From: Roseburia sp. AF12-17LB
GTDB taxonomy: Bacteria > Bacillota_I > Bacilli_A > RF39 > UBA660
Direction of reading: 5' to 3'
Assembly (NCBI GenBank): GCA_963607615.1
Contig: CAVDCT010000010.1
Span: 133 to 64,132, forward strand
DNA: 64,000 nt
This document shows positions 26,725-45,493 of the stretch, piece by piece. The notes under the pieces were generated by a model, which was not told the DNA's origin, ran no database searches, and worked only from the letters and a program-made list of their open reading frames with translations. How positions within the stretch are numbered: the first letter of the stretch is position 1; each line of letters starts with the position of its first letter. The translations under genes were made by a program, and so were the position numbers.

Positions 26725-27384
26725 TTATTGTAAATAAATTCTTACTGTTTCTCCTTCTTGTATTTTTGTACCAGCCTCTGGAGATTGATATAACACCTTT
26801 CCACTACCATCAATTTTAACATTAAATCCTTTTAAAGATTTTTGTGCGTCTTTTAATTCCATACCAACAACATTAGGTATTTCAATATATTTCTTATCTA
26901 AATAAGTATATTCTTTTTCAATAGATCCTGTTCTTTTCTCAATACCTAAAATATCTATTATTGACGTCATAATATTTTTAGCAAGTGGTGCTGCTACTGT
27001 TCCTCCATATTGAGTAACACCTTTAGCATTATCAACAGCAACATAAACAACTACTTCAGGATCATCAGCAGGTAATATTCCAATAAAAGAAGTTATATAA
27101 TTACCTACCATATATTTACCATCACTAACTTTCTGAGCTGTTCCTGTTTTACCACCTACTCTATAATCTGCAATATAAGCATTATGTCCTGTACCACGTG
27201 CTACAACACTTTCTAATGCATATTTAACTTTTTTACTTGTTTCACTACTTATAACACTTCTTACCTTTGTTGGAGTATTTTGCAAAATAACTTGATTAGT
27301 TTCTGGATCATTAATACTTTTAACAATATATGGTTTATAAAGAGTTCCACCATTAACAGCAGCACTAACGGCTGTTATTTGTTG
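26725..27384 (-). CDS. 3' segment of the interrupted class B penicillin-binding protein gene (KTG motif plus one PASTA domain)
   Basis: In-frame sequence upstream of the track ORF reads (SI)QQITAVSAAVNGGTLYKPYIVKSINDPETNQVILQNTPTKV.. It then contains ..GGKTGTAQKV.. and a C-terminal PASTA-like ..IPNVVGMELKDAQKSLKGFNVKIDGSG.. This segment has no start codon of its own. Confidence 0.85.
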   Translation of the reverse strand, partial: QQITAVSAAVNGGTLYKPYIVKSINDPETNQVILQNTPTKVRSVISSETSKKVKYALESVVARGTGHNAYIADYRVGGKTGTAQKVSDGKYMVGNYITSFIGILPADDPEVVVYVAVDNAKGVTQYGGTVAAPLAKNIMTSIIDILGIEKRTGSIEKEYTYLDKKYIEIPNVVGMELKDAQKSLKGFNVKIDGSGKVLYQSPEAGTKIQEGETVRIYLQ

Positions 27385-29014
27385 TATAGAGGTCTAATAA
27401 ATGAAACTTTTTGCCTAAATTATCAGAAGTAGTATATACACTTTCTCCTGTCTTAATAAAAATATCTAATTTAATCCCTCTATCACTTTGCTTGTGAACT
27501 ATTATTTTATCTATTAATTCATTAAATACATCACTATAACATTTATCATCTTCTAAACACTTCTCTAATGCATTTCTAAGTTTCTCAATTTTATTTTCTA
27601 TATAATTTTTATCTTCCTTATTGTTTTTTAATTCATCCATTTTATTTTGATAAATCATTAAATCTTCATTTATTAAATCTACTTGTTTTTTATAATCGTC
27701 TTTAGATAAGTATTCTTCCATAACTAATTCTAATAATTTATCTTTTTTATTATTTAAAACTATTATTTTAGATTCTAAACTTTTTATTTCTATTTCATTA
27801 TTATTAGTTTCTAAATAATTCTTACACTCATTTAATATCTCATCAAATATATTATTTCTTCTTTTAAATAATTTATTAAACATATCTTTAAAAACTTCAT
27901 CAAGTTCTAGTTCAAATACTCTAGGATTAGAACACCCTTTTAAACTTTCTTTCCGATATACTTGACATTCCCATACAGGATTATTTTTTCTTTTTCCAGC
28001 ACTTGATCTATGATAAGTTAAATTATGGCAGCCACAATATATTTTTCCTGAATATGTATATCTATTTTGAAATACTGCTTTATTAACTGCACGATTTGTA
28101 AAACTATCTTGTCGTTGCTTTAGTTTAATATTAGCTCGTTCCCATAGTCCTTCAGATACTATTGGTGGAACATTATCATAATCTTTGTATATTATCCAAT
28201 CAGATTCATTTAATCTTTTCTTTTGCTTAGTACGATAATCTAATACTTTTGATTTATGTCCACAATAATACCCTTTATATTTAGGATTTTCTATAATTCT
28301 AGTTAGTATTGTAGTATCGATTCTTTTTCCTGTTCTACTTTTGTAACCTATACTATATAAATATCTTGATACTTTAGATAATCCATCAGTAGTATTAGCA
28401 TATCTATCAAATATTATTTTAATCATTTCTGCTTGTTCTTCATCAATTACTAATTTTCCTTTATCTTTTACATAACCATAAATATTAGAGCAACCTAGTA
28501 CCACACCATTATCAATACTTCTTTTCATACCAAATGAAACTCTTTCAGATAGTCTTCTTACTTCATCTTGAGCAATACTAGACATCATGGTAAGTCTAAG
28601 TTCAGAGTCAGGTAATATTGTATTAATATTATCATTTAGAAAATATACACCAACACCATTAGATAATAATTCTTGTGTATACATAATACTATCTAATGTA
28701 CTTCTTGAAAATCTTGATATTTCTTTAGTTAATATTAAATCAAATTTGTGTCTTTTAGCATCTTCAATCATTCTTAAAAATTCTTCTCTTTTTTTAACTT
28801 GTGTACCTGATATACCTTCATCAATATATGAACCTATAAAGCACCAGTTAGGAACTTTACTAATATATTCATTAAAGAAAGATATTTGACTTTGCAAAGA
28901 ATGTAATTGTTCATCTTTATCAGTTGATACTCTTGCATAAAAACATACTCTTAAATTTAATTCTTGTAGTGGAACACCTTTCATAATATTATTCCTAACT
29001 GTATATAAGTCCAT
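27365..29014 (-). CDS. Large serine recombinase
   Basis: ..RVCFYARVSTDKDEQLHSLQSQ.. (resolvase catalytic Ser), ..LTKEISRFSRS.., a recombinase domain, a Cys-rich zinc ribbon (CGCHNLTYH..WECQ..GCSN) and a C-terminal coiled coil. Start ATG 29014 is 7 nt after AGGAGG. The last 7 codons and the stop lie beyond the element boundary. Confidence 0.9.
   Translation of the reverse strand: MDLYTVRNNIMKGVPLQELNLRVCFYARVSTDKDEQLHSLQSQISFFNEYISKVPNWCFIGSYIDEGISGTQVKKREEFLRMIEDAKRHKFDLILTKEISRFSRSTLDSIMYTQELLSNGVGVYFLNDNINTILPDSELRLTMMSSIAQDEVRRLSERVSFGMKRSIDNGVVLGCSNIYGYVKDKGKLVIDEEQAEMIKIIFDRYANTTDGLSKVSRYLYSIGYKSRTGKRIDTTILTRIIENPKYKGYYCGHKSKVLDYRTKQKKRLNESDWIIYKDYDNVPPIVSEGLWERANIKLKQRQDSFTNRAVNKAVFQNRYTYSGKIYCGCHNLTYHRSSAGKRKNNPVWECQVYRKESLKGCSNPRVFELELDEVFKDMFNKLFKRRNNIFDEILNECKNYLETNNNEIEIKSLESKIIVLNNKKDKLLELVMEEYLSKDDYKKQVDLINEDLMIYQNKMDELKNNKEDKNYIENKIEKLRNALEKCLEDDKCYSDVFNELIDKIIVHKQSDRGIKLDIFIKTGESVYTTSDNLGKKFHLLDLYTTNNSR
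27392..27404. repeat. Terminal inverted repeat, recombinase end (attL side)
   Basis: GTCTAATAAATGA, the exact reverse complement of 44230-44242. Confidence 0.8.
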
Positions 29015-29025
29015 AATCACACCTC

Positions 29026-29232
29026 CTAAGTTAAAATTTTATAATTATTCAAATCATTTATATATTCATCATTAATTTTACTTTTTTCAAATTCTATTTT
29101 ATTTAACAATTTATTAATACAAAAATTATACATTTCATCATCTATAACACTTTTTCTTTTTAAATATTCAAGTAATTTTATACTTGTTTCTATTTCTATT
29201 ATTTTAGATGGAACTTTATTTATGTTTTCCAT
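29026..29232 (-). CDS. Small hypothetical protein (68 aa) translationally coupled to the recombinase
   Basis: Its stop overlaps the recombinase RBS. No recognisable motif. Its position suggests a possible accessory or directionality factor, which is speculative. Confidence 0.35.
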   Translation of the reverse strand: MENINKVPSKIIEIETSIKLLEYLKRKSVIDDEMYNFCINKLLNKIEFEKSKINDEYINDLNNYKILT

Positions 29233-29271
29233 ATACTTTGTCCTTTCTTTTAAGTTTATTTTTATAAAAAC

Positions 29272-29299
29272 TAAAAAAGAACTTAAGGTATTAAGTTCT
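29272..29299 (-). terminator. Intrinsic terminator
   Basis: Minus-strand AGAACTTAA-tacc-TTAAGTTCT followed by TTTTTT. Confidence 0.55.
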
Positions 29300-29399
29300 A
29301 CAAAAAATTTGAAAACTTAAATACCACAAAGGACAAAATTAGACTAAATCATCATTTGAAATAAATTAAGTTTTCAAATAACAATTTAGTTTTTTATTA

Positions 29400-29834
29400 T
29401 TAATATTTTATAATTTTTCTAGCTATTTCATAGCCATCAATATTATCAGGTAATAATTCATCATGTCCTAATATCAAGAATAATTCTGCAAGTGTATCTT
29501 TCTTTTCTTTAAATGATAATTTTTCAAACACTGGTATTAATTCTTTATATTCTTTTGGATAAAGACGATAAAGATTAAAAGTATAGTTACAATACTCTTT
29601 ATTCTCAATTACTAAATAACGATAATCAATACTACTCGGATTAAATATTTCTATATCTATACCATCATCAAGTAAATTAGGATTAACCTCATTCAAACTA
29701 TTAATTTGATTTTTATCCCATAAATCAAAAATATAATTAATAAATTTTAGTTTATCATCTCTATCAAGTTCATTTATTTTTATAACTAATTCTTTTTCTT
29801 CATTACTTGTATTTTTTAAATACATATCAAACAC
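29400..29834 (-). CDS. Hypothetical protein (144 aa)
   Basis: ORF only. No recognisable motif. Confidence 0.35.
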   Translation of the reverse strand: MFDMYLKNTSNEEKELVIKINELDRDDKLKFINYIFDLWDKNQINSLNEVNPNLLDDGIDIEIFNPSSIDYRYLVIENKEYCNYTFNLYRLYPKEYKELIPVFEKLSFKEKKDTLAELFLILGHDELLPDNIDGYEIARKIIKY

Positions 29835-30079
29835 ACTCCTTCATTTTCAATTTAAGTCATTTTAAGAGACTTTATTTTTTATACTAATAACTGATTAAGA
29901 TTAATATTAAAGTCTCTTATTTCTTATATTAAGCATCAATAAATTAAAATTTAGTTTTAATATTTATCACTTAAAAAAATAAATTTTGCAAGAGTTTTTT
30001 ATAAAAATAATAATAATTTTTTTGTTTTATCTATTTTATATTTGTTTTACTTTATTAATCTTTAAGTTATTTATACTAT

Positions 30080-30409
30080 CTAATTATCCATATATGGTTG
30101 TTCAGTGTGTACTTTTTGGGTATATTGTTTTTCATAAACAATATAGTTATATAAAAATTTACCATCTTTAGAATGTCCTTTTTCAATAATTAAATATCTA
30201 TTTTCTTCTAATTCTTTTAGTGCATTAGTAATAGCTAATCTACTCTCTTTACATAAAAGTCTTAAACCATTAATATTAAAATTCCATACATCAGGTAAAG
30301 ATAACATTAAAGTTAATAATCCTTTTGCCTTTAAAGATATATTTTTATCTTCTAAATAAGTGTTATCAATCTTCGTATAATTAGTAAGTTTTTCTGTTCT
30401 TATTACCAT
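30080..30409 (-). CDS. Winged-helix DNA-binding protein of the mobile-element replication-organiser/DnaD-N-like type
   Basis: ..YTKIDNTYLEDKNISLKAKGLLTLMLSLPDVWNFNINGL..SRLAITNALKELEENRYLI.. This pattern is widespread in Firmicute plasmid, ICE and phage replication modules. Confidence 0.45.
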   Translation of the reverse strand: MVIRTEKLTNYTKIDNTYLEDKNISLKAKGLLTLMLSLPDVWNFNINGLRLLCKESRLAITNALKELEENRYLIIEKGHSKDGKFLYNYIVYEKQYTQKVHTEQPYMDN

Positions 30410-30597
30410 AATATTTTTCCTCCTTCCATTTTAAATTCATAATCTTTTTCATATCTTTCTATATAAGATCTATAACCTAGCTCTAATAAATAGATAAACA
30501 TTTTATTCATACTAAAATTATTTTTAATAGATAAAAGCCTAATTCTAGTTTTTAAATTATCATCTAATCTTAATGTGGTTCTTTCAGTACATCTCAT
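30403..30597 (-). CDS. Ribbon-helix-helix-like small regulator (64 aa)
   Basis: MRCTERTTLRLDDNLKTRIRLLSIKNNFSMNKMFIYLLELG.. (beta-strand then two helices). Start ATG 30597 is behind AAGGAAGGA. The longer track ORF (to 30711) runs through repeat-rich non-coding DNA. Confidence 0.45.
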   Translation of the reverse strand: MRCTERTTLRLDDNLKTRIRLLSIKNNFSMNKMFIYLLELGYRSYIERYEKDYEFKMEGGKILW

Positions 30598-30624
30598 AAA
30601 AATTTTCCTTCCTTTCTTAAAATT

Positions 30625-30879
30625 ATGAGTAGCCACTTTTACTATTTTTAAGCTATTCTTTGAGTAATAAATTCTGCATATTTTTAATGGGCATAAGGAG
30701 AATGCCACCATAATCTTATATTTACCTTATAAAATAAAGTAAATATGGTGGTGTCATTACTATTTTTGCACTTGCAAAAATGACTACTTTTTAAGTAGTA
30801 AGTGGCTACTCATATATAAATATTCCTTTAATACCAACAAAAAAAGTGGCTACCCTTTTTAATAAAAGTGACCACTCAT
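30625..30879. repeat. Four copies of a ~14-bp iteron-like motif AAGTG(G/A)C(T/C)ACTCAT
   Basis: 30625-30638 (inverted, ATGAGTAGCCACTT), 30800-30813 (AAGTGGCTACTCAT), 30844-30855 (AAGTGGCTACCC), 30866-30879 (AAGTGACCACTCAT). All lie upstream of the RHH/wHTH genes. Confidence 0.6.
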
Positions 30880-31211
30880 AACAAAATCATTAAAAATATA
30901 TGCTTCCTATACTTTTTAATTTATAAAACCATCTCCTTTAAATAAAAAAGAGAAGAACATAGTTCCTCTCCACACAATTTTTTCATATTATACACTATTA
31001 TAACTATTGACAAGCACAAGTCAAGTTCATTTTATGATCAATTCATGTAATATCATGTACAATTTGTGTCATAAAAATATGTAAGTTTTCTTCATAATTC
31101 TCACATATTTTACTATATTATAACACTTGACAAAATATATTCAAGTCAAATCAAGTCCGTTTTTGGTACGAATTTGGACTTTTTTGATACATTTTTAAAA
31201 ATTTGATAATT

Positions 31212-31607
31212 TTATATGTTTGATAATTTATCTTTAATATATTCATCCAACAAATAAGAATCCTTTTTTACCCATTTATAATCACAATGTTCATCACTTA
31301 ATATAACATTAACATCTGATTTATTAACATTAATAATAAAATCAATTTCTAAATCATGAATCAATTCATCATTTTTATTTTTTACTTCATCATAATAATG
31401 TGTAATAATTGGCTCAAATTATGAACTAAACCCAATTTCCTCAAATAATTCTCTTTTTAAACCTTCTTTTAAAGTTTCACCACTTTCTAGGTGGCCTCCA
31501 GGAAATTCCCATGCTCCTGGATATAAATCATCATTTTCACTTCTTTTAACTACCAAAAATTCATCATTAGATTTCAAAATTCCAGTCAAAACAATTTTTG
31601 TATTCAT
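31212..31607 (-). pseudogene. NUDIX hydrolase interrupted by one in-frame TAA
   Basis: The track ORF ends ..GGHLESGETLKEGLKRELFEEIGFSS*. The same frame continues FEPIITHYYDEVKNKNDELIHDLEIDFIINVNKSDVNVILSDEHCDYKWVKKDSYLLDEYIKDKLSNI*, giving a normal ~130-aa NUDIX length. Confidence 0.7.
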
Positions 31608-31765
31608 ACAAAACCTCCCATTTATTTTTAATTACATCATATATTTTCAATAAATCATCGTTAATTATAAATTTGTTGTTTTTATTTCTATAAATAAAAA
31701 GCTCTATTATCATCATTATAAATATAACATAAAAAGACTAGTTATTAAAGTGCCAAAAATGAGAT

Positions 31766-33733
31766 TTATTTCATTTTTCTAGTTTTTATCAATCTTAAAG
31801 TAGATTCAGGAACTAATATTTCAAGCAATTCATCATCATTTTCTTCAACTGCTCTTCTTACTGTCTTAGCGCTTATTTCATCACCATTTATATTTCTAAA
31901 TCTAGGTATTTCTATTAATTCAATTCCATATAGTGGTAAATTTCTTTTAAGTTCTTTATTATATTCTCTAGTTATGTAGTCATTTTGTTCTTGACCAACA
32001 AATCTTTTTTTTATATTTAAGACCGGTGCTATATATTGAGTAAATATTTCTTGATCTATTGATAAATCAAGAGATACATCAGTTGATTCACTTCTATTAA
32101 AATACTCAGGAAATATCATTGATGAACCAAATATCTTACCACTTGGTATTACTACTACATTTTCAAAGTCTTTACAGCCTTCTTTAACCATTTCATATCT
32201 ATCTTTAAAAGAATATTTTGATTTATCTTCTTGTACAACCATTACAATTAAAGTATTAACTTCTTTTCTAGCATAGTCTATCAGTTTATAATGACCATAA
32301 GTAAATGGATTACAATTCATAAGTATTGCACCATTATTGCTAGTATTAATATTTAAACCCTTAAGAAATTCTAAATATTCATTCAAATATCTATTGTTAC
32401 CAAATATATTTCTTTTTTTAGTATTAGGAATAGCTATTGCTAAAGTATGATTAATAGAATCAACAGTCTTTAATTCTTTTTCAATTTTTTCATAAATAAA
32501 ACGTGCTATCATGTCATTAGCTTCACTATTACAATGTGCCGGTTTATCTATAAAGTAATTTTTTAATACTCCTGAATTATATAATTCAAGAAGTGATATA
32601 GCACTATTATATCCCATACTTTTTAATACTTCATTTTCTTTCTTAGATACTATAAATATAAATTTATCATTAAGTTTACTATTGATATTATCAGCTATTC
32701 TTACTTGTTCAAAAAATTCCATAGCTCTTAATCCATAATTATTAACAGAATAATCTCTATTATTTTCATTTATTATTCTTTGCAAACAACTAGGAATAGT
32801 GTTTTTGTCATCTACTAAAACTCCATATACCATACAAGGACCTAAAAAATTAATATCAAAAGCATAATCTCTATTTTTATCTGTTGTAACTCTTTTACCA
32901 TTGATAGTTCTACAAAATTCATTATTTGAATCAGCTAATCTACATATTCCATTTTGTATTATGGTACCAGGAGAAATATTTTCTAAACCACAAAATTTTG
33001 TCATAAAACTTTCACCATAAATACTATTTAATAATTTAGTAATTTCTTCGTCTATATTGTATTTACTTAAATAATATATATATCCTATTTTACTATCTAA
33101 TCTCTTTCTTTCTTCTAAACTAAAAGATGTTATGTCATCAGTACTAGGAAATTCAAATACTGTTATATAAAGTTTTTTAGATAATTTTTTAACAAAATAG
33201 TAATATTCAACATTTTCACATAATTTAGTTAAACTTATTAAATTTTTATTAAATAGTATTTCTTTGAGTTTTAATCCATTTAAACAAGTATCTAATACTA
33301 TTTCATTATTATCGATTAATTTTTTTACTATATCTAAATCATAATCAATTACTTCTACCTCAAAATCGTTACCATATACATTAATATAACTATATAAAAT
33401 ATTAGATAATTCACCAGTAATGTATATTTTTTTGAGATTTAAACTTCTTAAATAATCAATTACTTTGTCATTATCTTTGTATAAATAATTCCATCTATGT
33501 TTATCTATATAAGTATTATTACTCCAAACATTTTCTATTTCTTTAATATCTTGTTGCATCTTATCTTCTTCTATTATTGGATTATAGCCAACTTTAACTG
33601 AATCAATATAAGAATGATAAGTTATATAAGAATTATTACATAAGACAATAACACTTGTTTCATCTTCTAAAAAAATTTTGTTAATATTGTTAAAATAATT
33701 TTTATCATTAGTATCTAATTTAACAAATCTCAT
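31766..33733 (-). CDS. Large protein with a C-terminal CitC-like (citrate lyase ligase-type) nucleotidyltransferase domain; the N-terminal ~440 aa are unknown
   Basis: C-terminal ..GAILMNCNPFTYGHYKLIDYARKEVNTLIVMVVQEDKSKYSFKDRYEMVKEG..VVIPSGKIFGSSMIFPEYF.. (HxGH-type motif of cytidylyl/adenylyltransferases). Confidence 0.55.
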   Translation of the reverse strand: MRFVKLDTNDKNYFNNINKIFLEDETSVIVLCNNSYITYHSYIDSVKVGYNPIIEEDKMQQDIKEIENVWSNNTYIDKHRWNYLYKDNDKVIDYLRSLNLKKIYITGELSNILYSYINVYGNDFEVEVIDYDLDIVKKLIDNNEIVLDTCLNGLKLKEILFNKNLISLTKLCENVEYYYFVKKLSKKLYITVFEFPSTDDITSFSLEERKRLDSKIGYIYYLSKYNIDEEITKLLNSIYGESFMTKFCGLENISPGTIIQNGICRLADSNNEFCRTINGKRVTTDKNRDYAFDINFLGPCMVYGVLVDDKNTIPSCLQRIINENNRDYSVNNYGLRAMEFFEQVRIADNINSKLNDKFIFIVSKKENEVLKSMGYNSAISLLELYNSGVLKNYFIDKPAHCNSEANDMIARFIYEKIEKELKTVDSINHTLAIAIPNTKKRNIFGNNRYLNEYLEFLKGLNINTSNNGAILMNCNPFTYGHYKLIDYARKEVNTLIVMVVQEDKSKYSFKDRYEMVKEGCKDFENVVVIPSGKIFGSSMIFPEYFNRSESTDVSLDLSIDQEIFTQYIAPVLNIKKRFVGQEQNDYITREYNKELKRNLPLYGIELIEIPRFRNINGDEISAKTVRRAVEENDDELLEILVPESTLRLIKTRKMK

Positions 33734-33757
33734 TATTTTTCCCCCTGTTAGATAGAA

Positions 33758-34516
33758 TTATTTATTTAATATAAAATCTACTATCTCGTTATCAAATCCA
33801 TACAATTCATGTTTTCCTTCATGAATTATCTTATATTCTATCTTATTTTTATCACAAAATTTTATCACGTTATTAACGTCTACTGTTTTATCTAAATCTC
33901 CTTGAATAATAAATATATTATTAAATTTTTCATTTTTAATATATTCATCACCAGATTTAAACTCCAAATAAGCATCTTTATATATTTTTATATTATTATA
34001 TAAAGGTAAGTACTCATTATCATCAAAATATTCAATATTAAGATTACCAGTTTTTCTTTCCATAATTTCACAAAAATTAATAGCTGGGCACATTAAATAT
34101 ATTTTATCTACATCATCAATTATTTCTTTATAGGCATTAAGTATAACGAATCCACCATAACTAGATCCAAATAAATATATTTCACTATCTTTATTTTTTT
34201 CTTTAATATAATTAATGGTATCTTTTAAATAGGAAATACAATTACTTAAATTAAATTTTTTAAAATCATTTCCATCTTCACCATGAGAAATCAAATCAAT
34301 ACTATAAGTATCATAACCATTGTTTAATAAATCTTTATAAAATCTAGTAATCCAATTCTTATTTCCACCTAATCCATGCACATATATTATTACTTTTTTA
34401 TTTTTAGGTTCTGTTGCACTAAATAAATGTATCCTATTATTAATAGTAAAATCTATATTTACTCTTTTATCTTCCCTAGCTATTTCTACTAACTCTTCTA
34501 TCATAATTTCCTCCAA
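33758..34516 (-). CDS. Alpha/beta hydrolase
   Basis: ..IYVHGLGGNKNW.., nucleophile elbow ..LFGSSYGG.., C-terminal ..HEGKHEL.. Confidence 0.7.
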   Translation of the reverse strand: MEEIMIEELVEIAREDKRVNIDFTINNRIHLFSATEPKNKKVIIYVHGLGGNKNWITRFYKDLLNNGYDTYSIDLISHGEDGNDFKKFNLSNCISYLKDTINYIKEKNKDSEIYLFGSSYGGFVILNAYKEIIDDVDKIYLMCPAINFCEIMERKTGNLNIEYFDDNEYLPLYNNIKIYKDAYLEFKSGDEYIKNEKFNNIFIIQGDLDKTVDVNNVIKFCDKNKIEYKIIHEGKHELYGFDNEIVDFILNK

Positions 34517-35313: not shown

Positions 35314-35375
35314 CTCTACTTGAATTATTTATAAATTAATGTTAGTATATGTAACAAAAGAAATGGAGTGTTAAA

Positions 35376-36833: not shown

Positions 36834-36834
36834 C

Positions 36835-37287: not shown

Positions 37288-37959
37288 TTTTTATTAACTT
37301 ATTTAACTGCCTTTGTTCATCTCTATAATCCATACATTGCCAAAATCCATCATATTTGTATGCAACGATATCATTAGTCTTCATTAGTCTTTCAATTACT
37401 TCACTTTCAAATGGCCCAGAATCCTCACTTAGATAACTAAATATTTTTTTATTAGCTATCATATATCCACCATTAACCCATTCACACTCTCGTAATTCTT
37501 TTTCCCTAAAGTTTTTAATTTTATTGTTTTTTATTTCAAATATACCAAATCTTTCTTTAGTCTTAAATACAGATAAAGTAAGTAATTTCTTATGTTTTTT
37601 ATGATATTCAATAAGATTATCAATATTTATATCCGATACGGCATCTGCATATGTAAGTGCAAAATCTTCATCATCAATATATTTTTCTACTTTTTTAATC
37701 TTCCACCAGTACAAGTATCAAGACCAGTATCTACTAATTTAATATTCCAATCTTCATTAACAGTACTAAAAAATTCTTCAAACAAATCTATTCGATAACC
37801 TAAGCATATTATAAAATCTTTAAACCCATAATAAGAATAAATTTTCATAATGTGCCATATTATAGGCATATCCCCTACTTTTACTAATGGCTTTGGAGTA
37901 AAATCTTCATCAGTTCTAATTCTACTACCTTTTCCTCCTGCAAATATAATACACTTCAT
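37253..37959 (-). pseudogene. rfbF: Glucose-1-phosphate cytidylyltransferase, frameshifted in an A6 run
   Basis: The N-terminal part is MKCIIFAGGKGSRI..KPLVKVGDMPIIWHIMKIY..TGGRLKK*. The +1 frame continues VEKYIDDEDFALTYADAVSDINI..GFWQCMDYRDEQ.. The sequence TTAAAAAAGTAG (near 37694-37705) would be in frame with seven As. Confidence 0.8.
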
Positions 37960-37967
37960 AATTGCTC

Positions 37968-39641
37968 CTATACCTTTAAGATACTACTATTATTAATAGA
38001 TGTATTCCAGTAGTAGTCATCTTCTTTTTTCATAACCAATACCTGATGTTGTAGTATTTCAGTAATATATGATATTTCATTCAAAGACAATATTATATTT
38101 CTAAGTATTATCATGTTATCTTTTAGTTCAATATCTTTTAAATCTATTTCTTTTCCTAATTTTTTGATTAGTTTTTTTACATCATTTTTACTAACCATTT
38201 TTAAATTATCATTCTTTTTTTTACAAAGATTTCTTTGGTAATTAGGACATTTATTACACTTACAAATGTCACTATTATAAAAGAACTTTCTATCTGGTTT
38301 AGATAAAGCAACTGCTAAGGCACATGATGTAGTTTGATAAATTGGATAATCACTTTCGCCTTTAAGATGTTTCCAAACATATTCATAAGCATTCTTATCC
38401 CAAACATTATCTGCTTTTAATGCTTCTTTCCTATGATTCCTTAATTCGTTCCATTCAATATGATCTATTATTTCATCTGTAATTTTAAGACCAATTGCTA
38501 CAGATGCAACAGCATATTTTTTAACAAAGTTATATATTCTATTTATATCTTCTTTTCTACTATTAGAAGGCATAAATGGTCTCCAATAATGAACAATAGT
38601 TTTATTATACTTATGCAATGTAATAAAATTATTTTCTATATCTTTTCTATTTACTCCAACTTCTATATCTTTATCAAATCCTGAATAACTTAAAAAGAAT
38701 ATAAATTTTTTACCTTGTTTTTCATAATTATCTATAAATTTTATAAAATCTTCTGGTATTTTACATTTAGTAATAAATACAATTGGATTTTCAACATTTT
38801 TTTCCATTAATATAGTTACTAATTGTTTTAAATATTCAATATTATCTGGTGTAGAAAAACCATCTGTTTGAGATAATAAACATAGTGGAATATCTTTTAT
38901 ATAAAATTTACTTTTTAATAGCAACTTAACAGCATTTTCAGGAGATGCTAACACCTTTGGTTGTACTAAATTAAGCTTTCTTTCCCTTAAAAAGCAATAT
39001 TTACATTGTTTTGGGCATCCTTGAACAGGATTAAGTACCATCCATGTAGCATGTACATCTACAATTGGATAAAATTTTGCTTCTTTTACTTTAGCAAATC
39101 TATCTAAAAACTTATTGGCATCATTAAGCATTAAATCAAATTCATGAGCCATATTTACATTTAAGACATTAGCTATATTAAATATAATTTCCAACATGTT
39201 AGCAAGTTTATATAATATAAAATCATTCACTTTTGAAAATTCATATCTAATTTTATAATGTCTATATTTATATTTTTCAAGTATTATTTCTGACACTTGC
39301 CCATATACTACATTGAATGATAATATTGCATCATTTATAGATGAAAACTCTACTTTTTTATAATTATACTCGTACTCTTTTAAATTTAATTTAAGTTTCC
39401 ATGCAAGCGCTACTATTTGAAGTACAATATCAGATAATTCATCTCCAATATCATAAATATTTCTTCCTACTTCTTTATATTCTTTATGTTCTAACATAAG
39501 TAAACAAAAATGTCCTAGTTGTGTATTCATCTCGCCTAGAACTGTAATAGCGTTCCAGTTTTTGTCTTCTGTTATCTTAAAATTCTTTTTTAGTTCAATT
39601 GCTTTATCATAATAATTATCTAAAAAATATTTAACATTCAT
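37968..39641 (-). CDS. Fusion protein: N-terminal MazG-like all-alpha NTP-pyrophosphohydrolase-like region plus C-terminal radical SAM domain (COG1533/SplB-like cluster context)
   Basis: N-terminal ..VLGEMNTQLGHF..IGDELSDIVLQIVALAWKLKLNL.. The middle has ..LNPVQGCPKQCKYCFLRE.. (CxxxCxxC). Confidence 0.6.
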   Translation of the reverse strand: MNVKYFLDNYYDKAIELKKNFKITEDKNWNAITVLGEMNTQLGHFCLLMLEHKEYKEVGRNIYDIGDELSDIVLQIVALAWKLKLNLKEYEYNYKKVEFSSINDAILSFNVVYGQVSEIILEKYKYRHYKIRYEFSKVNDFILYKLANMLEIIFNIANVLNVNMAHEFDLMLNDANKFLDRFAKVKEAKFYPIVDVHATWMVLNPVQGCPKQCKYCFLRERKLNLVQPKVLASPENAVKLLLKSKFYIKDIPLCLLSQTDGFSTPDNIEYLKQLVTILMEKNVENPIVFITKCKIPEDFIKFIDNYEKQGKKFIFFLSYSGFDKDIEVGVNRKDIENNFITLHKYNKTIVHYWRPFMPSNSRKEDINRIYNFVKKYAVASVAIGLKITDEIIDHIEWNELRNHRKEALKADNVWDKNAYEYVWKHLKGESDYPIYQTTSCALAVALSKPDRKFFYNSDICKCNKCPNYQRNLCKKKNDNLKMVSKNDVKKLIKKLGKEIDLKDIELKDNMIILRNIILSLNEISYITEILQHQVLVMKKEDDYYWNTSINNSSILKV

Positions 39642-39642
39642 T

Positions 39643-40500
39643 TTAAAACCATTCTTTCTTTTTAACTTTTATAATACTGTCATATTCTTTTTTATCATCA
39701 GTATCTAAATATTCTTTCTTATGCTCTAATACGTTTATAAAATAATTAATAATGTTTCTTCTTATGTTGTAATCTGGAATATCTAGAATAAAATTATTAT
39801 AATGTGATTCTGTATGATACAAGACATCCATTGCTTTCTTTTTGATTTTTTCATAGTCATCATTTCTCATAATGCTATTATTTGATTTGTAATAATAGTA
39901 TCCAATATATGGAATCGATATAACTGTAGATGCTTTGTACAATTGATAAGAAGTTAGGCCAAAATCCTCTTGTGTTTTACCTTGTAAAAATTTAAAATTG
40001 TTATTCTCCCAAAACTGTCTACTATAACAGTATAGCCAAGAAGGACTATATATTTCATTATTAACTGCACATAAATTTAAAAAATCAAGACCTTTATATA
40101 TTCCAATATTTTTAGTAACAAATTCTTCCACAATATTCTTATTATTATCAATCATAACCGCTTGAAATCTAAGCATATCATATTCAACATCATCGTATTC
40201 ATTAATAGTTTCAATTAATTTTTGATTAATAGTATCATCTATATCTAAAAAAATAATTAAATCCCCTGTACATTTAGTTAATCCAAAATTTCTTACAGCA
40301 CCTGGATCATGTTTAGATATTTTGTACAGTTTTATTTTATCCTTATATTGCATAAGTGTTTTATAAGAATTATCACAACTATTATCATCAATAGCAATAA
40401 TTTCATAATTATCACATGTTTGATTAAAAATAGAATCAAGACATTTATCAATATATCTTTCTCCATTATATATTGGTATTATAATACTTACCTTTTTCAT
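39643..40500 (-). CDS. Family 2 glycosyltransferase
   Basis: MKKVSIIIPIYNGERYIDKCLDSIFNQT..YEIIAIDDNSCD..FLDIDD. The start is probably ATG 40500 rather than the track start at 40527. Confidence 0.85.
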   Translation of the reverse strand: MKKVSIIIPIYNGERYIDKCLDSIFNQTCDNYEIIAIDDNSCDNSYKTLMQYKDKIKLYKISKHDPGAVRNFGLTKCTGDLIIFLDIDDTINQKLIETINEYDDVEYDMLRFQAVMIDNNKNIVEEFVTKNIGIYKGLDFLNLCAVNNEIYSPSWLYCYSRQFWENNNFKFLQGKTQEDFGLTSYQLYKASTVISIPYIGYYYYKSNNSIMRNDDYEKIKKKAMDVLYHTESHYNNFILDIPDYNIRRNIINYFINVLEHKKEYLDTDDKKEYDSIIKVKKKEWF

Positions 40501-40615
40501 ATAACCACCAGCCCTTGTTATATTCATTTATAAGCAAAAAAGAGAGACTATAAAACTAGGCCCTCTTCCTCCACAACTACCACGAATTAATTTATCACTT
40601 ATTCTATTACTTTTT

Positions 40616-41032
40616 TTAATAAAAATCAAGTATTTTGACATATTTCATTTTTTTATAAATGGATATAACATATAGATTCATACAATCAAAATTTTTATCA
40701 TATATAACATTATCAATAATTGAAATCATATGATAATAATCTTTCTTATTCCAACAAAACACAACATATGAATTATCATTCAAATTTAAATCTTTAATCA
40801 TAATATCTTTATTATAGTCAATATTAAAAATATTATTATCTTCCATATATTTTTCAAATACTGGTATATCATTAAATGAATCACACTTTAAATCTTCAGC
40901 AATTTTACATAAGTCATTATAAACATCATTATATTCTTTATTTAAAATCTTACATAAGCTTCTTATCACACAATTACTTTTACCATTTTTATCTGATATA
41001 TAAAATTCTTTAAATGTCATATTAATCCCCAA
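40616..41032 (-). CDS. Hypothetical protein (138 aa), possible papain-like Cys/His fold
   Basis: ..GKSNCVIRSLCKIL.. and ..YYHMISIIDNVIYD.. This is a weak pattern only. Confidence 0.35.
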   Translation of the reverse strand: MGINMTFKEFYISDKNGKSNCVIRSLCKILNKEYNDVYNDLCKIAEDLKCDSFNDIPVFEKYMEDNNIFNIDYNKDIMIKDLNLNDNSYVVFCWNKKDYYHMISIIDNVIYDKNFDCMNLYVISIYKKMKYVKILDFY

Positions 41033-41510
41033 TCTTTTTTATATTTGTATACATTCTTGAATGATATCCACTTTTATCATAAAACTTAATAGCATTATCA
41101 TTATAAGCAAATACATCTACTAAAATATATTCACAACCCAATGATTTAAAATATTCTTCCATTTTATTCATAAGCATATTGCCTATACCTTTACTTCTTA
41201 CATTTTTGGAAACTACTAATTCAGTTATTTCTCCTCTTTTAGGGCATTTATAATCAAGATAATCATATTCATCATATGGAAAAATACATCCCATAATTAA
41301 ACCTACTGCTTTATCATTTTCAACTGCTATATAACATTTACCATTATTATTTTTAACTTCTTCTAAATCTAAAATTGCCATTTTTTCTCTATATTCTGGA
41401 TGTAGTTGATCTAAATTATCTTTATCAATAGATAAAATATACTTTTCAAGTTCAACTAACAAGTCTTTAACATCTTCTAAATATTTATCTTCGTACTCTA
41501 TTATTTTCAT
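41022..41510 (-). CDS. GNAT-family N-acetyltransferase
   Basis: ..ELVVSKNVRSKGIGNMLMNKMEEYFKSLGCEYILVDVFAYNDNAIKFYDKSGY.. Confidence 0.8.
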   Translation of the reverse strand: MKIIEYEDKYLEDVKDLLVELEKYILSIDKDNLDQLHPEYREKMAILDLEEVKNNNGKCYIAVENDKAVGLIMGCIFPYDEYDYLDYKCPKRGEITELVVSKNVRSKGIGNMLMNKMEEYFKSLGCEYILVDVFAYNDNAIKFYDKSGYHSRMYTNIKKIGD

Positions 41511-42108
41511 TATTAAAATAATACTCCTTAGTTAATTCGTATTTAGAAAAAGTTAATATTCCATCATAAAATGTATAAGGTGACTCTTCTTCTATTTCAC
41601 CAATTTTATTAAACCCTAATTTTTCAAACATTCTACAAGATCTTATATTATCTTTTACAGCACCTGAAGAAATACCATTTATTTCTACTTCGCTAAACAT
41701 ATAATCTATCATTGCTTTAGCAGCTTCTGTTGCATAGCCTTTTCCTTGATAAGCCGGATCCATATACCAACCTACATCACGAATAGTAATATCTTCTCCA
41801 TTTTCTTGAGCAGATACTTGTCCAATTACTTCTTCATAACCACTATTCGTATATTCTGGTTTTAAAAATACACTCCATACAAATACATCATTATTATCTG
41901 CTTTATCAACTTTAGATTTATAGAATTTCTCTTGATTCTCCCAAGCCCAGTGGCTAGGATTATTAGCGTGTTTTTTGGCACCTGTTAAATACCATTTATT
42001 TACTTCTGGAATCATTAATATCTCCCATAATCTTTTTTGTTCTTCCATCTTAGAACTTCTTAATATTAATCTTTCAGTTTCTATAGTTCTACTACCAATT
42101 AAATTCAT
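41485..42108 (-). CDS. GNAT-family N-acetyltransferase (RimJ/RimL-like)
   Basis: ..IETERLILR.. N-terminus and ..QGKGYATEAAKAMIDYMF..VKDNIRSCRMFEKLGF.. Confidence 0.8.
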   Translation of the reverse strand: MNLIGSRTIETERLILRSSKMEEQKRLWEILMIPEVNKWYLTGAKKHANNPSHWAWENQEKFYKSKVDKADNNDVFVWSVFLKPEYTNSGYEEVIGQVSAQENGEDITIRDVGWYMDPAYQGKGYATEAAKAMIDYMFSEVEINGISSGAVKDNIRSCRMFEKLGFNKIGEIEEESPYTFYDGILTFSKYELTKEYYFNNENNRVRR

Positions 42109-42122
42109 TTACATCCTCCATT

Positions 42123-42664
42123 TTATATTTCTATACTATCAAATATATTTTCTTCTATATCATAAATAGTAAATTTTCTATTTTCATACATCATATATGT
42201 AGGATTATTGTTTTCTTTAGGTATAGATATTGAACCAACATTAATATATACCATATCTTTTTCTTTTTTTATATAAGGTATGTGTTCATGACCATATACC
42301 AATATACCTTTTCTGTTAAATTTTCTATTCTTTTCTAAATTATATTCATTACCATGAGTTAAATAAATATCTAACCCATCTACACATATTAAAGCTAAAT
42401 TATTACAAATTGGAAAATCACTTGCTTTAATATCAACGTCTGAATCACAATTACCTTTTAAACAAATAATTTTATCTGAATATTTAGTTAATGTATCTTT
42501 AACATTCATACTATTAACTTCATACTTTTGATTATACGTAGGACCGGCATAATATAAATCACCAAGAACTACTAATTTATCTATTTTTTCTTTTTCAATA
42601 ACTTTTTCTATTTTTTTAAATTAATATTAATACCATGTATATCTGATATAAATAATATCTTCAT
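42123..42664 (-). pseudogene. YfcE/MJ0936-type metallophosphoesterase, frameshifted in an A7 run
   Basis: ATG 42664 gives MKILFISDIHGININLKK*. The next frame continues IEKVIEKEKIDKLVVLGDLYYAGP..MNVKDTLTKY.. into track ORF 42123-42509 (..GNCDS..THGNE..GHEH..). One extra A in TTAAAAAAATAG restores the frame. Confidence 0.7.
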
Positions 42665-42679
42665 GTTTGTCTCTCCTTT

Positions 42680-43024
42680 CTACTTAAATTTTTCTATTAC
42701 TTCAAATATTTCAAATATTACTTTAGTATTATCATTAAAATTAGTATTTATTTTACTAAAGTAATCTATATGAACTTTTATCCATTCTTCTAAAGATTTA
42801 TTTTCTCCTTCTAATTTTGCTAAATCCCAAGTAATATTCTTAAATTCAGTTACAATAACTTCTTTTGTTTCTAATATACACATATCATTATTATTTGAAT
42901 CAGTAAGTATAGATACATCACCTACTATAGGTAAACTATCAAATTCATACAAAGATGTTGTTGCTGTCTTCTTACCGTTTAAAACAAGAACAACTAATTT
43001 ATCTGCATCTATCCTAAATGTCAT
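42680..43024 (-). CDS. ASCH domain protein (COG4405/YhfF-like)
   Basis: ..LVVLVLNGKKTATTSLYEF..PIVGDVSILTDSNNNDMCILETKEVIVTEFKNITWDLAKLEGEN.SLEEW..H..F. Confidence 0.65.
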   Translation of the reverse strand: MTFRIDADKLVVLVLNGKKTATTSLYEFDSLPIVGDVSILTDSNNNDMCILETKEVIVTEFKNITWDLAKLEGENKSLEEWIKVHIDYFSKINTNFNDNTKVIFEIFEVIEKFK

Positions 43025-43036
43025 CTTTTAAGTTTA

Positions 43037-43792
43037 TTATACACGTGTCTTACCCCACCAATCAGGAATTAATTCTTCTAATCTCACTATTTCTTTAGTA
43101 TCAATATTTTTTAGTATCTCAATATCCTTACTATTCTTAGAAAGTTGCATCATATATTCTCTACATGCCCCACACGGTGAACCTACATTACCTTTAGAAT
43201 CAACGCATACTAGTTTAATAATCTCATTTTCTCCATTTGTAATCATATTGGCAATAGCATTTCGTTCACCACACATACCAAGTGTTGATGCTGTATCAAT
43301 GCATACTCCTGCATAAATATTATGATTTTTAGTAAGTATTGCTGCACCAACTTGTCCTGCACTAATCATACCTGACACATCTCTTGGATTTCTTACATTC
43401 TTAGCTTTTTCATATAATTCTTCCCAAATAGTGTTTTCACTATATAAATATTCTATATGAATAGCATATACACCATTTTTCTTAATGGCATCTTCATATC
43501 CATCAAGTTTACTTACATTTCTAATAGCTTCTTCTTTATCATTGGTAGATGAAGTTGTGTATCTAGTTCCTTCTAAAGTAAAAAGTTCTTCTAATGAATC
43601 ATAATGATTTACTTCTTTAACTTTAACATAAAATACACCTAAATCATTACTAGTAAATTCTATAATATCATTTTGTTTTAATTTACTATAATCATGCTCA
43701 CTATTTTCTTTATTTGCTCTAATCTCTACTCTTTTAGTATTATTTTTGATAGCTAGTGCTGCTCTATCATTAATATTTAATTTCATTATCAT
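43037..43792 (-). CDS. Fusion: N-terminal ASCH domain plus C-terminal cytidine/blasticidin-S-type deaminase domain
   Basis: N-terminal ..ALAIKNNTKRVEIRAN..NDIIEF.. C-terminal ..QVGAAILTK..MCGERNAIANM..SPCGACREYM..LEELIP.. (zinc-binding C-x-E ... PCxxC). Confidence 0.75.
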   Translation of the reverse strand: MIMKLNINDRAALAIKNNTKRVEIRANKENSEHDYSKLKQNDIIEFTSNDLGVFYVKVKEVNHYDSLEELFTLEGTRYTTSSTNDKEEAIRNVSKLDGYEDAIKKNGVYAIHIEYLYSENTIWEELYEKAKNVRNPRDVSGMISAGQVGAAILTKNHNIYAGVCIDTASTLGMCGERNAIANMITNGENEIIKLVCVDSKGNVGSPCGACREYMMQLSKNSKDIEILKNIDTKEIVRLEELIPDWWGKTRV

Positions 43793-43809
43793 TTTAATAT
43801 CCTCCTAAC

Positions 43810-43835
43810 AAAAAAATTCTGCATAATGCAGAATT
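43810..43835 (-). terminator. Leader terminator directly upstream of the ASCH-deaminase RBS
   Basis: Minus-strand AATTCTGC-attat-GCAGAATT followed by TTTTTTT, then AGGAGG-N8-ATG (43792). Confidence 0.6.
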
Positions 43836-43860
43836 AATTTTATAATCTAAAAGAATATTC

Positions 43861-43926
43861 CTAAAAGTTTAATATATTAGGAGTAGTGATTAATTCTGCA
43901 TTATTTATAACTTGTAAATTTTTCAT
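43861..43926 (-). CDS. Candidate 21-aa leader ORF (MKNLQVINNAELITTPNILNF)
   Basis: ATG behind the strong RBS AAAGGAGTG. It contains one arm of a 16-nt perfect complement to the terminator's 5' arm. Confidence 0.35.
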   Translation of the reverse strand: MKNLQVINNAELITTPNILNF

Positions 43927-43964
43927 CTTAATCACACTCCTTTCTTTGAATAATTTACACCTAC

Positions 43965-43993
43965 AATATATCACACTTTAATCACTTTGTAAA
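43965..43993 (-). promoter_or_regulatory. Putative promoter of the cargo operon
   Basis: Minus-strand TTTACA-N17-TATATT, ~35 nt upstream of the leader ORF. Confidence 0.4.
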
Positions 43994-44229
43994 TTACATA
44001 TACATTTTTCTATAGCGATTAAAACAAATCATTTTTATTTTTTAGGAAAAACTAATTAAAATTCCTAAAAAAATAAAATTTATTATATTTATGTTACTTT
44101 TCTAATTATTATTTTGGTATTTTAATTTTAAAAGTAACATTTTATATTTCTACAAAACAATTATAATTAAACCTAACATCATACTTTTTAGTATATTTAC
44201 TACTTATTCCTCTAGTGATTTTTGTGATA

Positions 44230-44242
44230 TCATTTATTAGAC
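44230..44242. repeat. Terminal inverted repeat, distal end (attR side)
   Basis: TCATTTATTAGAC, the exact reverse complement of 27392-27404. Confidence 0.8.
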
Positions 44243-44251
44243 AGTAAGGTG

Positions 44252-45493
44252 TAAAGCAGTTACAGATACACCCTGTCCAAATGCTGTAGTAGCTGTTTCC
44301 AAATCACCTATTTTATCAACATTAAATAATATACCATTCTCTTCTCCACTAAGTTCAATACCTGTTTTGGTACCAAAGCCAAAATTTTTAATATATTTAA
44401 ATAATTTTTCTTTACCAAGTTTCAATCCAATATTAACAAAACCCGTATTACAAGAATTCTCTACTACCTCTAAATATGTCTGACTACCATGACCACCATG
44501 TTTCCAACAATGAATAGTAGCACCCTCAACAGTAACACTACCTGAATCCTGGAATGTATCTTTATCTAAATCTATTAAATTTTCTTCTAATGCAGCTGCT
44601 AATGAAATTATTTTAAATGTTGAACCGGGTTCATAGGTCATCCAAATAGGTAAATTACGATTTATCTCTTCTAATGAATAATCTTGATAATTAGTTGGAG
44701 AAAAAGTAGGACGTGATGCCATAGCTAATATTTCACCCGTATTAGGATTCATAACTATTCCCCATGCACCATCTGGATTATACATCTTAATAGCATTGTC
44801 TAATTCTCTTTCTAAAGCTTCTTGAATTTGAAAATTTACAGTTAATGTCATATTCATACCTGCTTGTGGTTGTTCATATATTTGACTTAAACTTAATTTT
44901 TGTCCTTTAGCATCACTAAAATATTTAATAGCACCATAACTTCCTGTTAAATAATCATTATAAATAAGTTCTAAACCACTAAGTCCTTGATTATCAATTC
45001 CAACAAAACCTAATGTATGTGATAAATAAGTATCATAAGGATAATTTCTCTTTGATTCTTTTACTAGATAAACTCCTGATAATTTTAAATCATTAATTTG
45101 ATCAGCTATTTCATTACTAAGTCTTCTTCCTTCTGGATGTACTCTTTCAATTGATGTTTTTTTTGTAACATGTGCTAACATATCTTTATAATCAGATTTT
45201 AATATATTAGATAATAATTTAGCTGTTTTTTCTTTTTCTTTAATTTGATTAGGTATTAAAACTAAAGAAGTAGTAGTAACATTACCTGCTAATGTAACAC
45301 CATTTCTATCATATATATTTCCCCTATTAGCCTCTAATGGTAAATTCCTACTCCATAAGTCTTTAGCATACTTATTCAATTTTTTATAACTAATAACTTG
45401 AATATAAAATACTTTTAATGTTATTACAATAAAAAGAAATATAATTATAACAAGTACTAAACGCATACGTTCATTCATTTTGCTTATAAACAT
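44252..45493 (-). CDS. 5' segment of the interrupted class B penicillin-binding protein gene (TM anchor, dimerisation domain, SxxK and SxN motifs)
   Basis: ..RMRLVLVIIIFLFIVITL.. anchor, ..RGNIYDRNG.., active-site ..GSTFKIISLAAALE.. (SxxK) and ..NSCNTGF.. (SxN). The conserved ..FGQGVSVTAL then diverges into HLTV* inside the element end. Confidence 0.85.

Follow-up and report, generated by a model that had tools for sequence, protein, structure and literature searches.

How can a gene that is cut in two by a 16.87-kb island be put together again, what is this island, and when might the repair occur? These questions are raised by a 64,000-nucleotide stretch of contig CAVDCT010000010.1 (hereafter the window; positions are those of this stretch), in which spoVD, a gene for a class-B penicillin-binding protein (PBP), lies in two pieces. 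We show that an integrative island driven by a large serine recombinase (LSR) is inserted at the CA of codon Q415 in the spoVD orthologue of an RF39-type gut bacterium, and that the family to which this island belongs moves horizontally between RF39 species and has been gained repeatedly. The preliminary description of the locus had proposed a PBP gene split by a serine-recombinase element of about 16.9 kb and rebuildable in frame; this stands, given the 633-residue join with all its motifs and the empty site of the closely related strain L001. We regard these structural claims as secure.

The split gene and its junctions

The interrupted locus consists of the following parts.

44250..45493, minus strand: spoVD 5' fragment, codons 1-414 and the first two bases (CA) of codon Q415; membrane anchor, PBP_dimer, STFK (291) and SCN (347)
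26725..27384, minus strand: spoVD 3' fragment, codons 415-633, with the CA shared; KTGT (493) and a single PASTA domain, without a start codon of its own
27385..44249, minus strand: integrated element, 16,865 bp (16,867 bp including one CA core); GC content 23.5%, versus 24-26% in the flanks

Reading of the open reading frames (ORFs) and an in silico join showed that the class-B PBP is encoded by one 633-codon gene made of window positions 45493..44250 and 27384..26725 (minus strand). The called 5' ORF (45493..44237, minus strand; 418 amino acids, aa) terminates with ..GQGVSVTAL and then four element-encoded codons, HLTV, followed by a stop. The reading frame of the 3' fragment runs from about 27386 to the stop at 26725 (minus strand) and starts with QQITAVSAAVNGG. 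The contents of the fragments are those claimed at the outset, namely STFK and SCN in the 5' part, and KTGT, a single PASTA domain and no start codon in the 3' part. Joining the fragments at the common TACA (44253..44250 / 27386..27383) generates a 633-aa protein, in which a profile search located the PBP_dimer (residues 53-200), Transpeptidase (246-553) and one PASTA (581-632) domains, with STFK at residue 291, SCN at 347 and KTGT at 493. The rebuilt spoVD junction reads ..GCTTTACAACAAATA... Since the insertion parts SxxK and SxN from KTG and PASTA, an active transpeptidase cannot be made from the split gene.

Sequence comparison assigns the two fragments to adjoining stretches of a single gene and not to two paralogues, as seen from the intact 633-aa alleles and from the empty-site contig L001, which is contiguous across the predicted junction. 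First, a database search retrieved many uninterrupted 633-aa alleles with the predicted reading ..VTALQQITAV... The closest of them (P0001) differs from the window protein by 3 residues, and H315Q is the sole private substitution of the window allele as compared to its relatives. Second, P0001 is carried by L001, which comes from a near-identical strain (about 99% nucleotide identity). In nucleotide alignments, L001 9058-11244 matches window 46436-44250 (99.7% identity) and L001 11241-21746 matches window 27386-16880 (98.9% identity), the two alignments overlapping by exactly four bases, TACA. Furthermore, the predicted attB site is identical to the L001 sequence across 82 nucleotides. As the flank alignments meet exactly, the insertion was precise, with host bases neither lost nor duplicated. 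Third, the occupied allele was seen again in an independent sample (L149), which excludes an assembly chimera. Sequencing runs exist for this occupied strain (SRR13434661) and for the empty site (SRR24884144).

The attachment sites of the window are organized as follows.

44225..44275, minus strand: attL, with host half-site ..GTAACTGCTTTA, crossover CA (44251-44250), 7-nucleotide spacer CCTTACT and element arm GTCTAATAAATGA (44242-44230)
27360..27410, minus strand: attR, with element arm TCATTTATTAGAC (27404-27392), 7-nucleotide spacer CTCTATA, crossover CA (27384-27383) and host half-site ACAAATAACAGCC

The preliminary description had noticed the TACA shared by both junctions. It is indeed shared, but two related loci (L108 and L144) have TTCA at attL, yet TACA at attR, showing that the strands cross over at the dinucleotide CA, with which codon Q415 begins, and that the other two bases match by coincidence. 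Reconstruction of attP gave perfect inverted arms of 13 bp (TCATTTATTAGAC), each 7 bp away from the CA. The arm GTCTAATAAATGA occurs in the 64 kb as two exact copies, inverted and located one within each junction; as a control, two matches at one mismatch or fewer compare with 0.48 expected, and two or more were found in 7 of 100 shuffles. Across the family of related elements, attR always reads ..TTTCATTTATTAGAC-N7-CA-ACAA.. and attL always reads ..GTnACnGCn-N3-CA-CCTTACTGTCTAATAAATGATA.. (8 loci). The empty and joined-end junctions that had been anticipated were both found in assembled contigs, so that all four site forms are represented: attL and attR in the window, attB in L001 and L002, and attP-type in L150-L153. 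Short attachment sites, a 2-bp crossover, inverted attP arms and unchanged host bases are features of integration by large serine recombinases.

The island family and its horizontal movement

The recombinase gene is located at the attR end of the element.

27365..29020, minus strand: LSR, 551 aa, with YARVSTD at residue 28

The LSR comprises the Resolvase (PF00239, residues 27-173), Recombinase (PF07508, 194-303) and Zn_ribbon_recom (PF13408, 323-381) domains, and it matches the phrog_95 integrase at 9e-109. Its best NCBIfam matches are CcrC (110) and CcrB (94), each with a cutoff of 900, and its XisF score is likewise far under the cutoff. A staphylococcal cassette chromosome (SCC, Ccr-type) was rejected, because the LSR falls far under the Ccr cutoffs and the target is spoVD rather than rlmH (orfX).

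Database relatives of the LSR form more than 120 clusters at 90-95% identity, one of which holds 675 member sequences, and in every context inspected a spoVD 3' fragment directly follows the LSR gene. A metagenome scan yielded 56 further loci, about 40 of which have an LSR (82-95% identical) abutting spoVD exactly at the QQ codon, next to SpoVD C-fragments that are just 48-69% identical to that of the window. The attB of the family is the conserved spoVD stretch ..GQGVSVTAL/QQITAVSA.. (the slash marks the insertion point). Given this one constant insertion site, spoVD can be rebuilt perfectly when the island leaves. The size of complete elements varies from about 5.3 to 16.9 kb, with differing cargo and a common right-hand module of about 3.8 kb.

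The recombinase and its target have diverged in a discordant manner. The LSR is under purifying selection (ratio of nonsynonymous to synonymous divergence, pN/pS, 0.17) with a median synonymous divergence (pS) of 0.30, and the synonymous divergence of the host spoVD is saturated (0.44-0.75 versus the window allele). In L090, L091 and L092, the LSR pS is only 0.003-0.026 while the pN of the host SpoVD reaches 0.25-0.35; conversely, hosts with identical spoVD carry LSRs that differ by pS up to 0.23. This mismatch indicates recent cross-genus transfer together with repeated independent acquisition. In the species-level cluster of the window, seven distinct spoVD sequences are intact and four are truncated.

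Recombination between element ends was also observed. Joints of the attP type (right end to left end) were assembled in four samples (L150-L153). In L154 (4174-13392), two different elements, whose LSRs are 92% and 69% identical to that of the window, stand head to tail with attP-like junctions, the second of which has the host-like spacer ACAAATA; this suggests that the array arose by accretion through recombination with an occupied site. The ends of the L154 contig do not overlap, and none of the attP-form contigs could be shown to be circular.

The spoVD C-fragment could be read at full length in 42 loci and is uninterrupted in 38 of them (in two additional loci, L107 and L114, it is cut by the contig end); degraded copies occur in L110, L120 and L133. 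We rejected the intactness of the fragments, or their dN/dS, as a proof of selection, since the elements are younger than their hosts and only four substitutions separate the window from L001.

The same gene is hit by a second, unrelated LSR family (about 40% identity), which inserts right after the SxN motif (..NSCN/PGF.., codon ~349) and leaves spoVD in three pieces at the following loci.

L087, 196-2023: second-family insertion in spoVD
L103, 1159-6333: second-family insertion in spoVD
L056, 4447-6397: second-family insertion in spoVD

Pieces of spoVD were also noticed beside intact copies, namely L056 6173-6397, L030 52-267 and L058 2387-2761. The L056 and L030 relics (residues ~347-417; 96% and 90% nucleotide identity to the intact copy) are fused to the left end of a family element and lie 3.6-6 kb upstream. 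The L058 relic (residues ~292-416; 82% nucleotide identity) lies downstream of the intact copy, and no element left end was detected alongside it. Separately, L136 2131-2784 and L137 5465-6118 were considered as an alternative target and rejected: each has a truncated LSR (residues ~330-547) fused past the att core to unrelated sequence, which probably reflects the decay of an element and not the use of another site.

The LSR reading frame itself extends across the attachment site. In the window, the LSR ORF crosses attR, so that its last five sense codons and its stop are spoVD DNA, and the protein ends with ..LLDLYTTNNSR. Across the family, the integrated LSRs are 549, 553 or 559 aa long, their last 5-12 codons being supplied by the host. 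At the other end of the element lies a coding stretch that is in frame with the LSR only when the element ends are joined, i.e., in the attP form.

44142..44249, minus strand: left-end coding stretch, PYCLINDITKITRGISSKYTKKYDVRFNYNCFVEI and a stop codon

In the attP state, the LSR gains the tail P(Y/C)CLINDTxTITRGxxSKYTKKYDVxFxYNCFxEI followed by a stop, to reach 579 aa (P0122). The amino-acid sequence of the tail and the position of its stop are conserved in 11 loci. As the LSR frame spans attP, integration exchanges the last ~35 codons for a few host-encoded codons.

Together, these data show that the family is built from variable cargo, a conserved module of about 3.8 kb (Arc-like, winged-helix, 144-aa and 68-aa proteins, and LSR) and an attP with 13-bp inverted arms. 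In the window, the module and the cargo comprise, besides the LSR, the following features.

29026..29232, minus strand: 68-aa protein, separated by a 5-bp gap from the downstream LSR gene; no family match
29273..29301, minus strand: hairpin and T-run, GTAGAACTTAA-TACC-TTAAGTTCTTTTTT, about 40 nucleotides ahead of the 68-aa gene
29400..29834, minus strand: conserved 144-aa module protein with no assigned function
30080..30409, minus strand: 109-aa winged-helix protein, like the N-terminal DNA-binding domain of replication-initiator/DnaD-like proteins (phrog_4707, 8e-21; HTH_36, weak)
30403..30597, minus strand: Arc-like ribbon-helix-helix protein, 64 aa from an internal ATG (the mechanical ORF begins at 30711)
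31216..44141, minus strand: variable cargo of about 13 kb, mixed enzymes, with a content that varies among relatives

No part of the element is better conserved than the block running from the hairpin through the 68-aa gene to the LSR (88-99% column conservation); the hairpin and T-run that open it are retained even in the most divergent family members. The 68-aa ORF is 66-68 aa long in all 20 representatives, with a pN/pS of about 0.39, and its product is a candidate accessory or directionality factor. The Arc-like protein is annotated at 64 aa in L083, L086 and L150, and sigma-70-like promoter matches occur 5' of its gene (31024..30997 and 31144..31117). The best of them (TTGACT-16-TATAAT, 31024..30997) is followed within ~25 nucleotides by a terminator-like hairpin and T-run (30971..30949); this promoter and hairpin (window 30949-31024, minus strand) could correspond to a short leader or a small RNA. 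A riboswitch or known RNA in the conserved leader was rejected, as Rfam returned nothing at E<=1 across 26500-45600.

The cargo encodes a cytidine-deaminase fusion, an ASCH protein, metallophosphoesterases, two GNAT acetyltransferases, a GT2 glycosyltransferase, a radical-SAM protein, a truncated nucleotidyltransferase, a NUDIX protein, a P-loop kinase (plus strand), an alpha/beta hydrolase and a citrate-lyase-ligase-like adenylyltransferase. Two gene pieces were noticed in it: a 62-aa NUDIX fragment (31419-31607) at the cargo/module boundary, and the nucleotidyltransferase (37253-37714), which lacks about 90 N-terminal profile positions. These truncated pieces indicate that the cargo has been rearranged.

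The view that this cargo is not phage-like was upheld by the domain, PHROGs and IMG/VR searches. Pfam and PHROGs detected no capsid, tail, terminase or lysis genes in the element, and the best deposited phage LSR is 38% identical to that of the window. We thus rejected a prophage, since the PHROGs matches are limited to the integrase, the Arc-like protein and the replication-initiator N-domain, and IMG/VR holds no real match to the element. A conjugative or mobilisable element was also rejected: in the element ORFs of at least 100 aa, no Pfam or NCBIfam domain of a relaxase, a coupling protein or a type IV secretion system was found, a search that does not rule out an oriT. A defence island was rejected as well, PADLOC having yielded only weak P-loop and NUDIX matches.

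The target gene and the possible timing of its repair

In B. subtilis, spoVD is a mother-cell gene, and the local gene arrangement is ftsL-pbpB-spoVD-..-mraY-..-spoVE. The joined PBP scores 741 bits on the TIGR02214 spoVD_pbp model (equivalog cutoff 688) and stays below the cutoffs of all other PBP models. In most relatives, spoVD is directly followed by mraY and a SEDS gene, and many loci have a class-B paralogue (28-33% identical) at most 10 kb away from spoVD. At L049, an RF39 locus, the genes run mraZ, rsmH, ftsL, a 736-aa PBP2X-like PBP, the target PBP, mraY, a SEDS gene and relA. On the spoVD model, the PBP2X-like PBP scores 371 (below the cutoff) and the target PBP 728 (above it), while the SEDS gene is above the ftsW model cutoff and narrowly under the spoVE cutoff. 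By its model score and by the gene order of L049, which mirrors the dcw cluster of B. subtilis, the target is the positional and sequence orthologue of spoVD, and a separate division PBP is present. By analogy with B. subtilis, we infer that the target spoVD may be expressed in the mother cell.

Orthologues of the target (64-85% identity) occur in metagenome-assembled genomes (MAGs) labelled uncultured Bacilli, 'Tenericutes', 'Acholeplasma sp. CAG:878', CAG:822 and Candidatus Coprosoma, the latter corresponding to the GTDB genus CAG-822 of the order RF39 (PMC8035907). It is from these relatives that the host of the window is inferred to belong to RF39. Two of the orthologue-bearing relatives are complete chromosomes of about 1.5 Mb. 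In the window's own species, spoVD no longer lies beside mraY or ftsW, neither of which was found within the 64 kb; a Bce-like ABC transporter and two-component module adjoin it instead. In this neighbourhood, the 571-aa ORF at 45553-47268 (minus strand), with 47376-47942, joins in frame the first 272 aa of an FtsX-type ABC permease to the last 285 aa of a histidine kinase. With respect to the empty-site strain (L001 6127-9058), the window strain lacks about 2.9 kb, comprising the C-half of the permease, the response regulator and the N-half of the kinase. The fusion is also present in the independent sample L149. Farther away, window 1401-16202 holds a capsule/cell-wall polysaccharide cluster unconnected with the split gene (LCP transferase, UDP-glucose dehydrogenase, Wzx-like flippase, several glycosyltransferases and WbaP-type priming transferase).

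Concerning the second PBP and the sporulation genes evoked by the preliminary description, the relatives possess the class-B paralogue, spo0A and yunB, but the 64-kb window harbors no sporulation gene other than the split spoVD. The spo0A (TIGR02875, 275 > 200) and yunB (118 > 112) genes lie next to spoVD-mraY-ftsW in the related MAG locus L039.

L039, 11839-12609: spo0A
L039, 19225-19680: yunB
L039, 16204-16566: ComGC-like gene

Spo0A with its Spo0A_C domain is widespread and strongly conserved in the lineage. The ComGC-like match is weak (33 bits, cutoff 75); if this protein is a competence pilin, elements devoid of transfer genes might conceivably be passed on by natural transformation.

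We propose that the LSR, probably with a directionality factor for which the 68-aa protein is the candidate, would recombine attL with attR, thereby releasing a circle and restoring an intact spoVD. Excision in the terminally differentiating mother cell would provide SpoVD for cortex synthesis, and the forespore genome would retain the island, for which spoVD would be a cost-free harbour. This developmental model, modelled on skin, SPbeta, vfbin, vrin and gin, seems plausible to us, with a slight lean in its favor, on four grounds. First, the target is orthologous to a mother-cell gene of B. subtilis. Second, another, unrelated LSR family splits spoVD too. Third, spo0A and yunB occur in L039, and Spo0A is conserved in the lineage. 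Fourth, RF39 has been predicted to sporulate (Field et al. 2024).

Several points weigh against the developmental model. Excision of the window element in its host was not observed. The attP-type joints show recombination, but, L154 being a tandem array, they do not prove free circles. The elements are young with a fast turnover, hence the intact fragments do not prove selection for reconstitution. Among the loci examined, spo0A was found in L039 only, and it is not tied to an element-bearing contig. A machine-learning study (SpoMAG) placed the RF39 MAGs at 0% sporulation probability. Pattern scans of the aligned 4-kb conserved module revealed no promoter motifs of the sigmaE, sigmaK or sigmaF type, the single match of the sigmaE/K/F/G scan being sigmaG-like and inside the LSR coding region; the sigma-70-like matches number 38 overall, versus 38.3 expected by chance from shuffles. 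Furthermore, the 2.9-kb deletion in the adjoining ABC/two-component module shows that the locus of the window strain is not pristine. Several results point to an actively moving island rather than to a domesticated developmental element, namely the near-identical recombinases of very different hosts, the differing recombinases within one host species, the coexistence of occupied and empty alleles in a species, the tandem arrays, the module's lack of sigmaE/sigmaK-like motifs and the conflicting predictions of sporulation in RF39. The reading of the locus as a skin- or SPbeta-type element stands for its structure, the match of the target to the spoVD model and the spo0A and yunB genes of the relatives, but the mobility data favor a horizontally moving island over a domesticated one. 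The analogy with skin, SPbeta and gin remains a reasonable one.

The main competitor of the developmental model is a tolerated knockout, which we hold to be possible while leaning against it. In this case, a selfish or beneficial cargo element would use spoVD simply as a reliable attB; SpoVD would be dispensable for growth, given the separate division PBP; excision would be sporadic, serving transfer or loss, instead of timed by development; and the disruption would cost little if the lineage seldom sporulates or is giving up sporulation. The rapid horizontal spread and the repeated independent acquisition of the family fit such a safe harbour, as do the minority of occupied alleles in the window's species cluster (4 versus 7 distinct sequences), the second class-B PBP of the relatives and the SpoMAG score of RF39. 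The same can be said of the few degraded copies (L110, L120 and L133), of the relic pieces of split genes next to intact copies, and of the absence of sporulation-type promoter motifs in the module, where an Arc-like repressor stands beside sigma-70-like matches (themselves at chance frequency). Yet spoVD is conserved across the order at 64-85% identity and above the equivalog cutoff, spo0A and yunB are present and conserved, and the very high prevalence of the elements speaks against a costly disruption. In addition, two unrelated LSR lineages target a gene whose B. subtilis counterpart is mother-cell-specific, as in the intervening elements of sporulation genes.

A reversible vegetative switch, similar to the 'active lysogeny' of Listeria phi10403S in comK, would let growing cells toggle a SpoVD-type activity independently of sporulation, for instance under cell-wall stress. 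It would suit the Bce-like ABC transporter and two-component neighbours of spoVD in the window's species, the existence of both attP and attB forms, and an LSR tail swap that could tell the integrated from the excised state. We nevertheless judge it improbable: there is no sign of circle maintenance, the element having only an N-terminal fragment of a replication-initiator-like protein; most relatives have the gene in their dcw cluster, away from any stress module; and LSR reactions are normally strongly directional. As for a defective prophage, a conjugative element or an assembly chimera, the match of the integrase to phrog_95 and the phage-family matches of two module proteins hardly make them credible, in view of the failure to find capsid, tail, terminase, lysis, relaxase or type IV secretion genes or any real IMG/VR match, the mere 38% identity of the best deposited phage LSR, and the recurrence of the same junctions across about 40 independent assemblies, as well as in a separate sample containing the window strain.

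Going further than the developmental model, spoVD in RF39 might be a developmental split gene serviced by exchangeable cargo islands, with an excision coupled to sporulation. The layout of the element, whose recombinase gene spans attP, would help to set directionality: the 579-aa LSR of the circle, with its conserved 35-residue tail, would be tuned for integration, the tail-less LSR of ~550 aa would be tuned for excision with its 68-aa partner, and the SxN-site LSR family would represent a convergent use of the same germline-safe harbour. We offer this extended scheme as a speculation, which is on the whole unlikely.

Relation to known elements and meaning for RF39

Mechanistically, the island is within the known gene-intervening elements driven by LSRs, and separate precedents exist for its non-phage cargo (gin), its accretion (SCC) and the partition of its integrase (SSV1). 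Like skin in sigK (B. subtilis and C. difficile; SpoIVCA-type), it is an LSR element inside a gene with a mother-cell-specific B. subtilis counterpart, its precise excision restores the ORF, and different recombinase lineages strike the same gene at different sites. Unlike skin, it targets spoVD in an uncultured RF39 host (genome of ~1.5 Mb), it is not prophage-derived, it is highly similar across very different hosts (recent horizontal transfer) and polymorphic within species, and its developmental timing is drawn by analogy. As SPbeta in spsM (SprA/SprB), it combines an LSR, encoded at the element end, with a putative small separate directionality factor (here the 68-aa candidate), and it is still mobile while splitting a gene; SPbeta, however, is a functional phage, and no equivalent of the sporulation-specific sprB promoter was detected here. 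The gin element in gerE (B. cereus ATCC 10987) is similarly a non-prophage gene-intervening element with serine recombinases, but its target is gerE, it has three recombinase genes, and there is no evidence of gin being a widespread cargo-carrying family spread by horizontal transfer.

SCCmec and other SCC elements share with the present family a cargo island with one or more LSRs, no transfer genes, site-specific insertion in a conserved chromosomal gene, tandem or composite arrays, variable cargo beside a conserved recombinase module, and CcrC/CcrB as the best NCBIfam matches. In contrast to the island described here, which splits the catalytic domain of its target, SCC enters the 3' end of rlmH non-destructively. 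SSV1 of Sulfolobus also has its attP within the integrase gene, so that integration alters the integrase product, but its integrase is a tyrosine recombinase split in mid-gene, whereas only a ~35-residue tail of a serine integrase is exchanged here. Listeria A118/phi10403S in comK likewise split a host gene that is rebuilt on excision; they differ in being true phages. In the open-access full-text literature, we found no report of an element splitting spoVD or any PBP gene, nor of such elements in RF39.

The family provides a natural large serine integrase with defined attB, attP, attL and attR sites, and the exchange of its C-terminal tail is of interest for integrase engineering. Abundant in gut metagenomes (clusters of up to 675 members) and swapping very different cargo, it constitutes a significant, undescribed route of gene flow. 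With the present finding, spoVD, the gene of the cortex transpeptidase, joins the short list of sporulation genes known to be interrupted by excisable elements; the order concerned is an uncultured one of the gut, with reduced genomes and a disputed capacity for sporulation. Surveys of MAGs can easily count a gene as absent when it lies in two or three pieces, which could bias the predictions of sporulation. In RF39, where spoVD was often reported as 'absent' or of reduced presence (Field et al. 2024), the split genes may explain this 'reduced presence or absence of spoVD' as a consequence of annotation.

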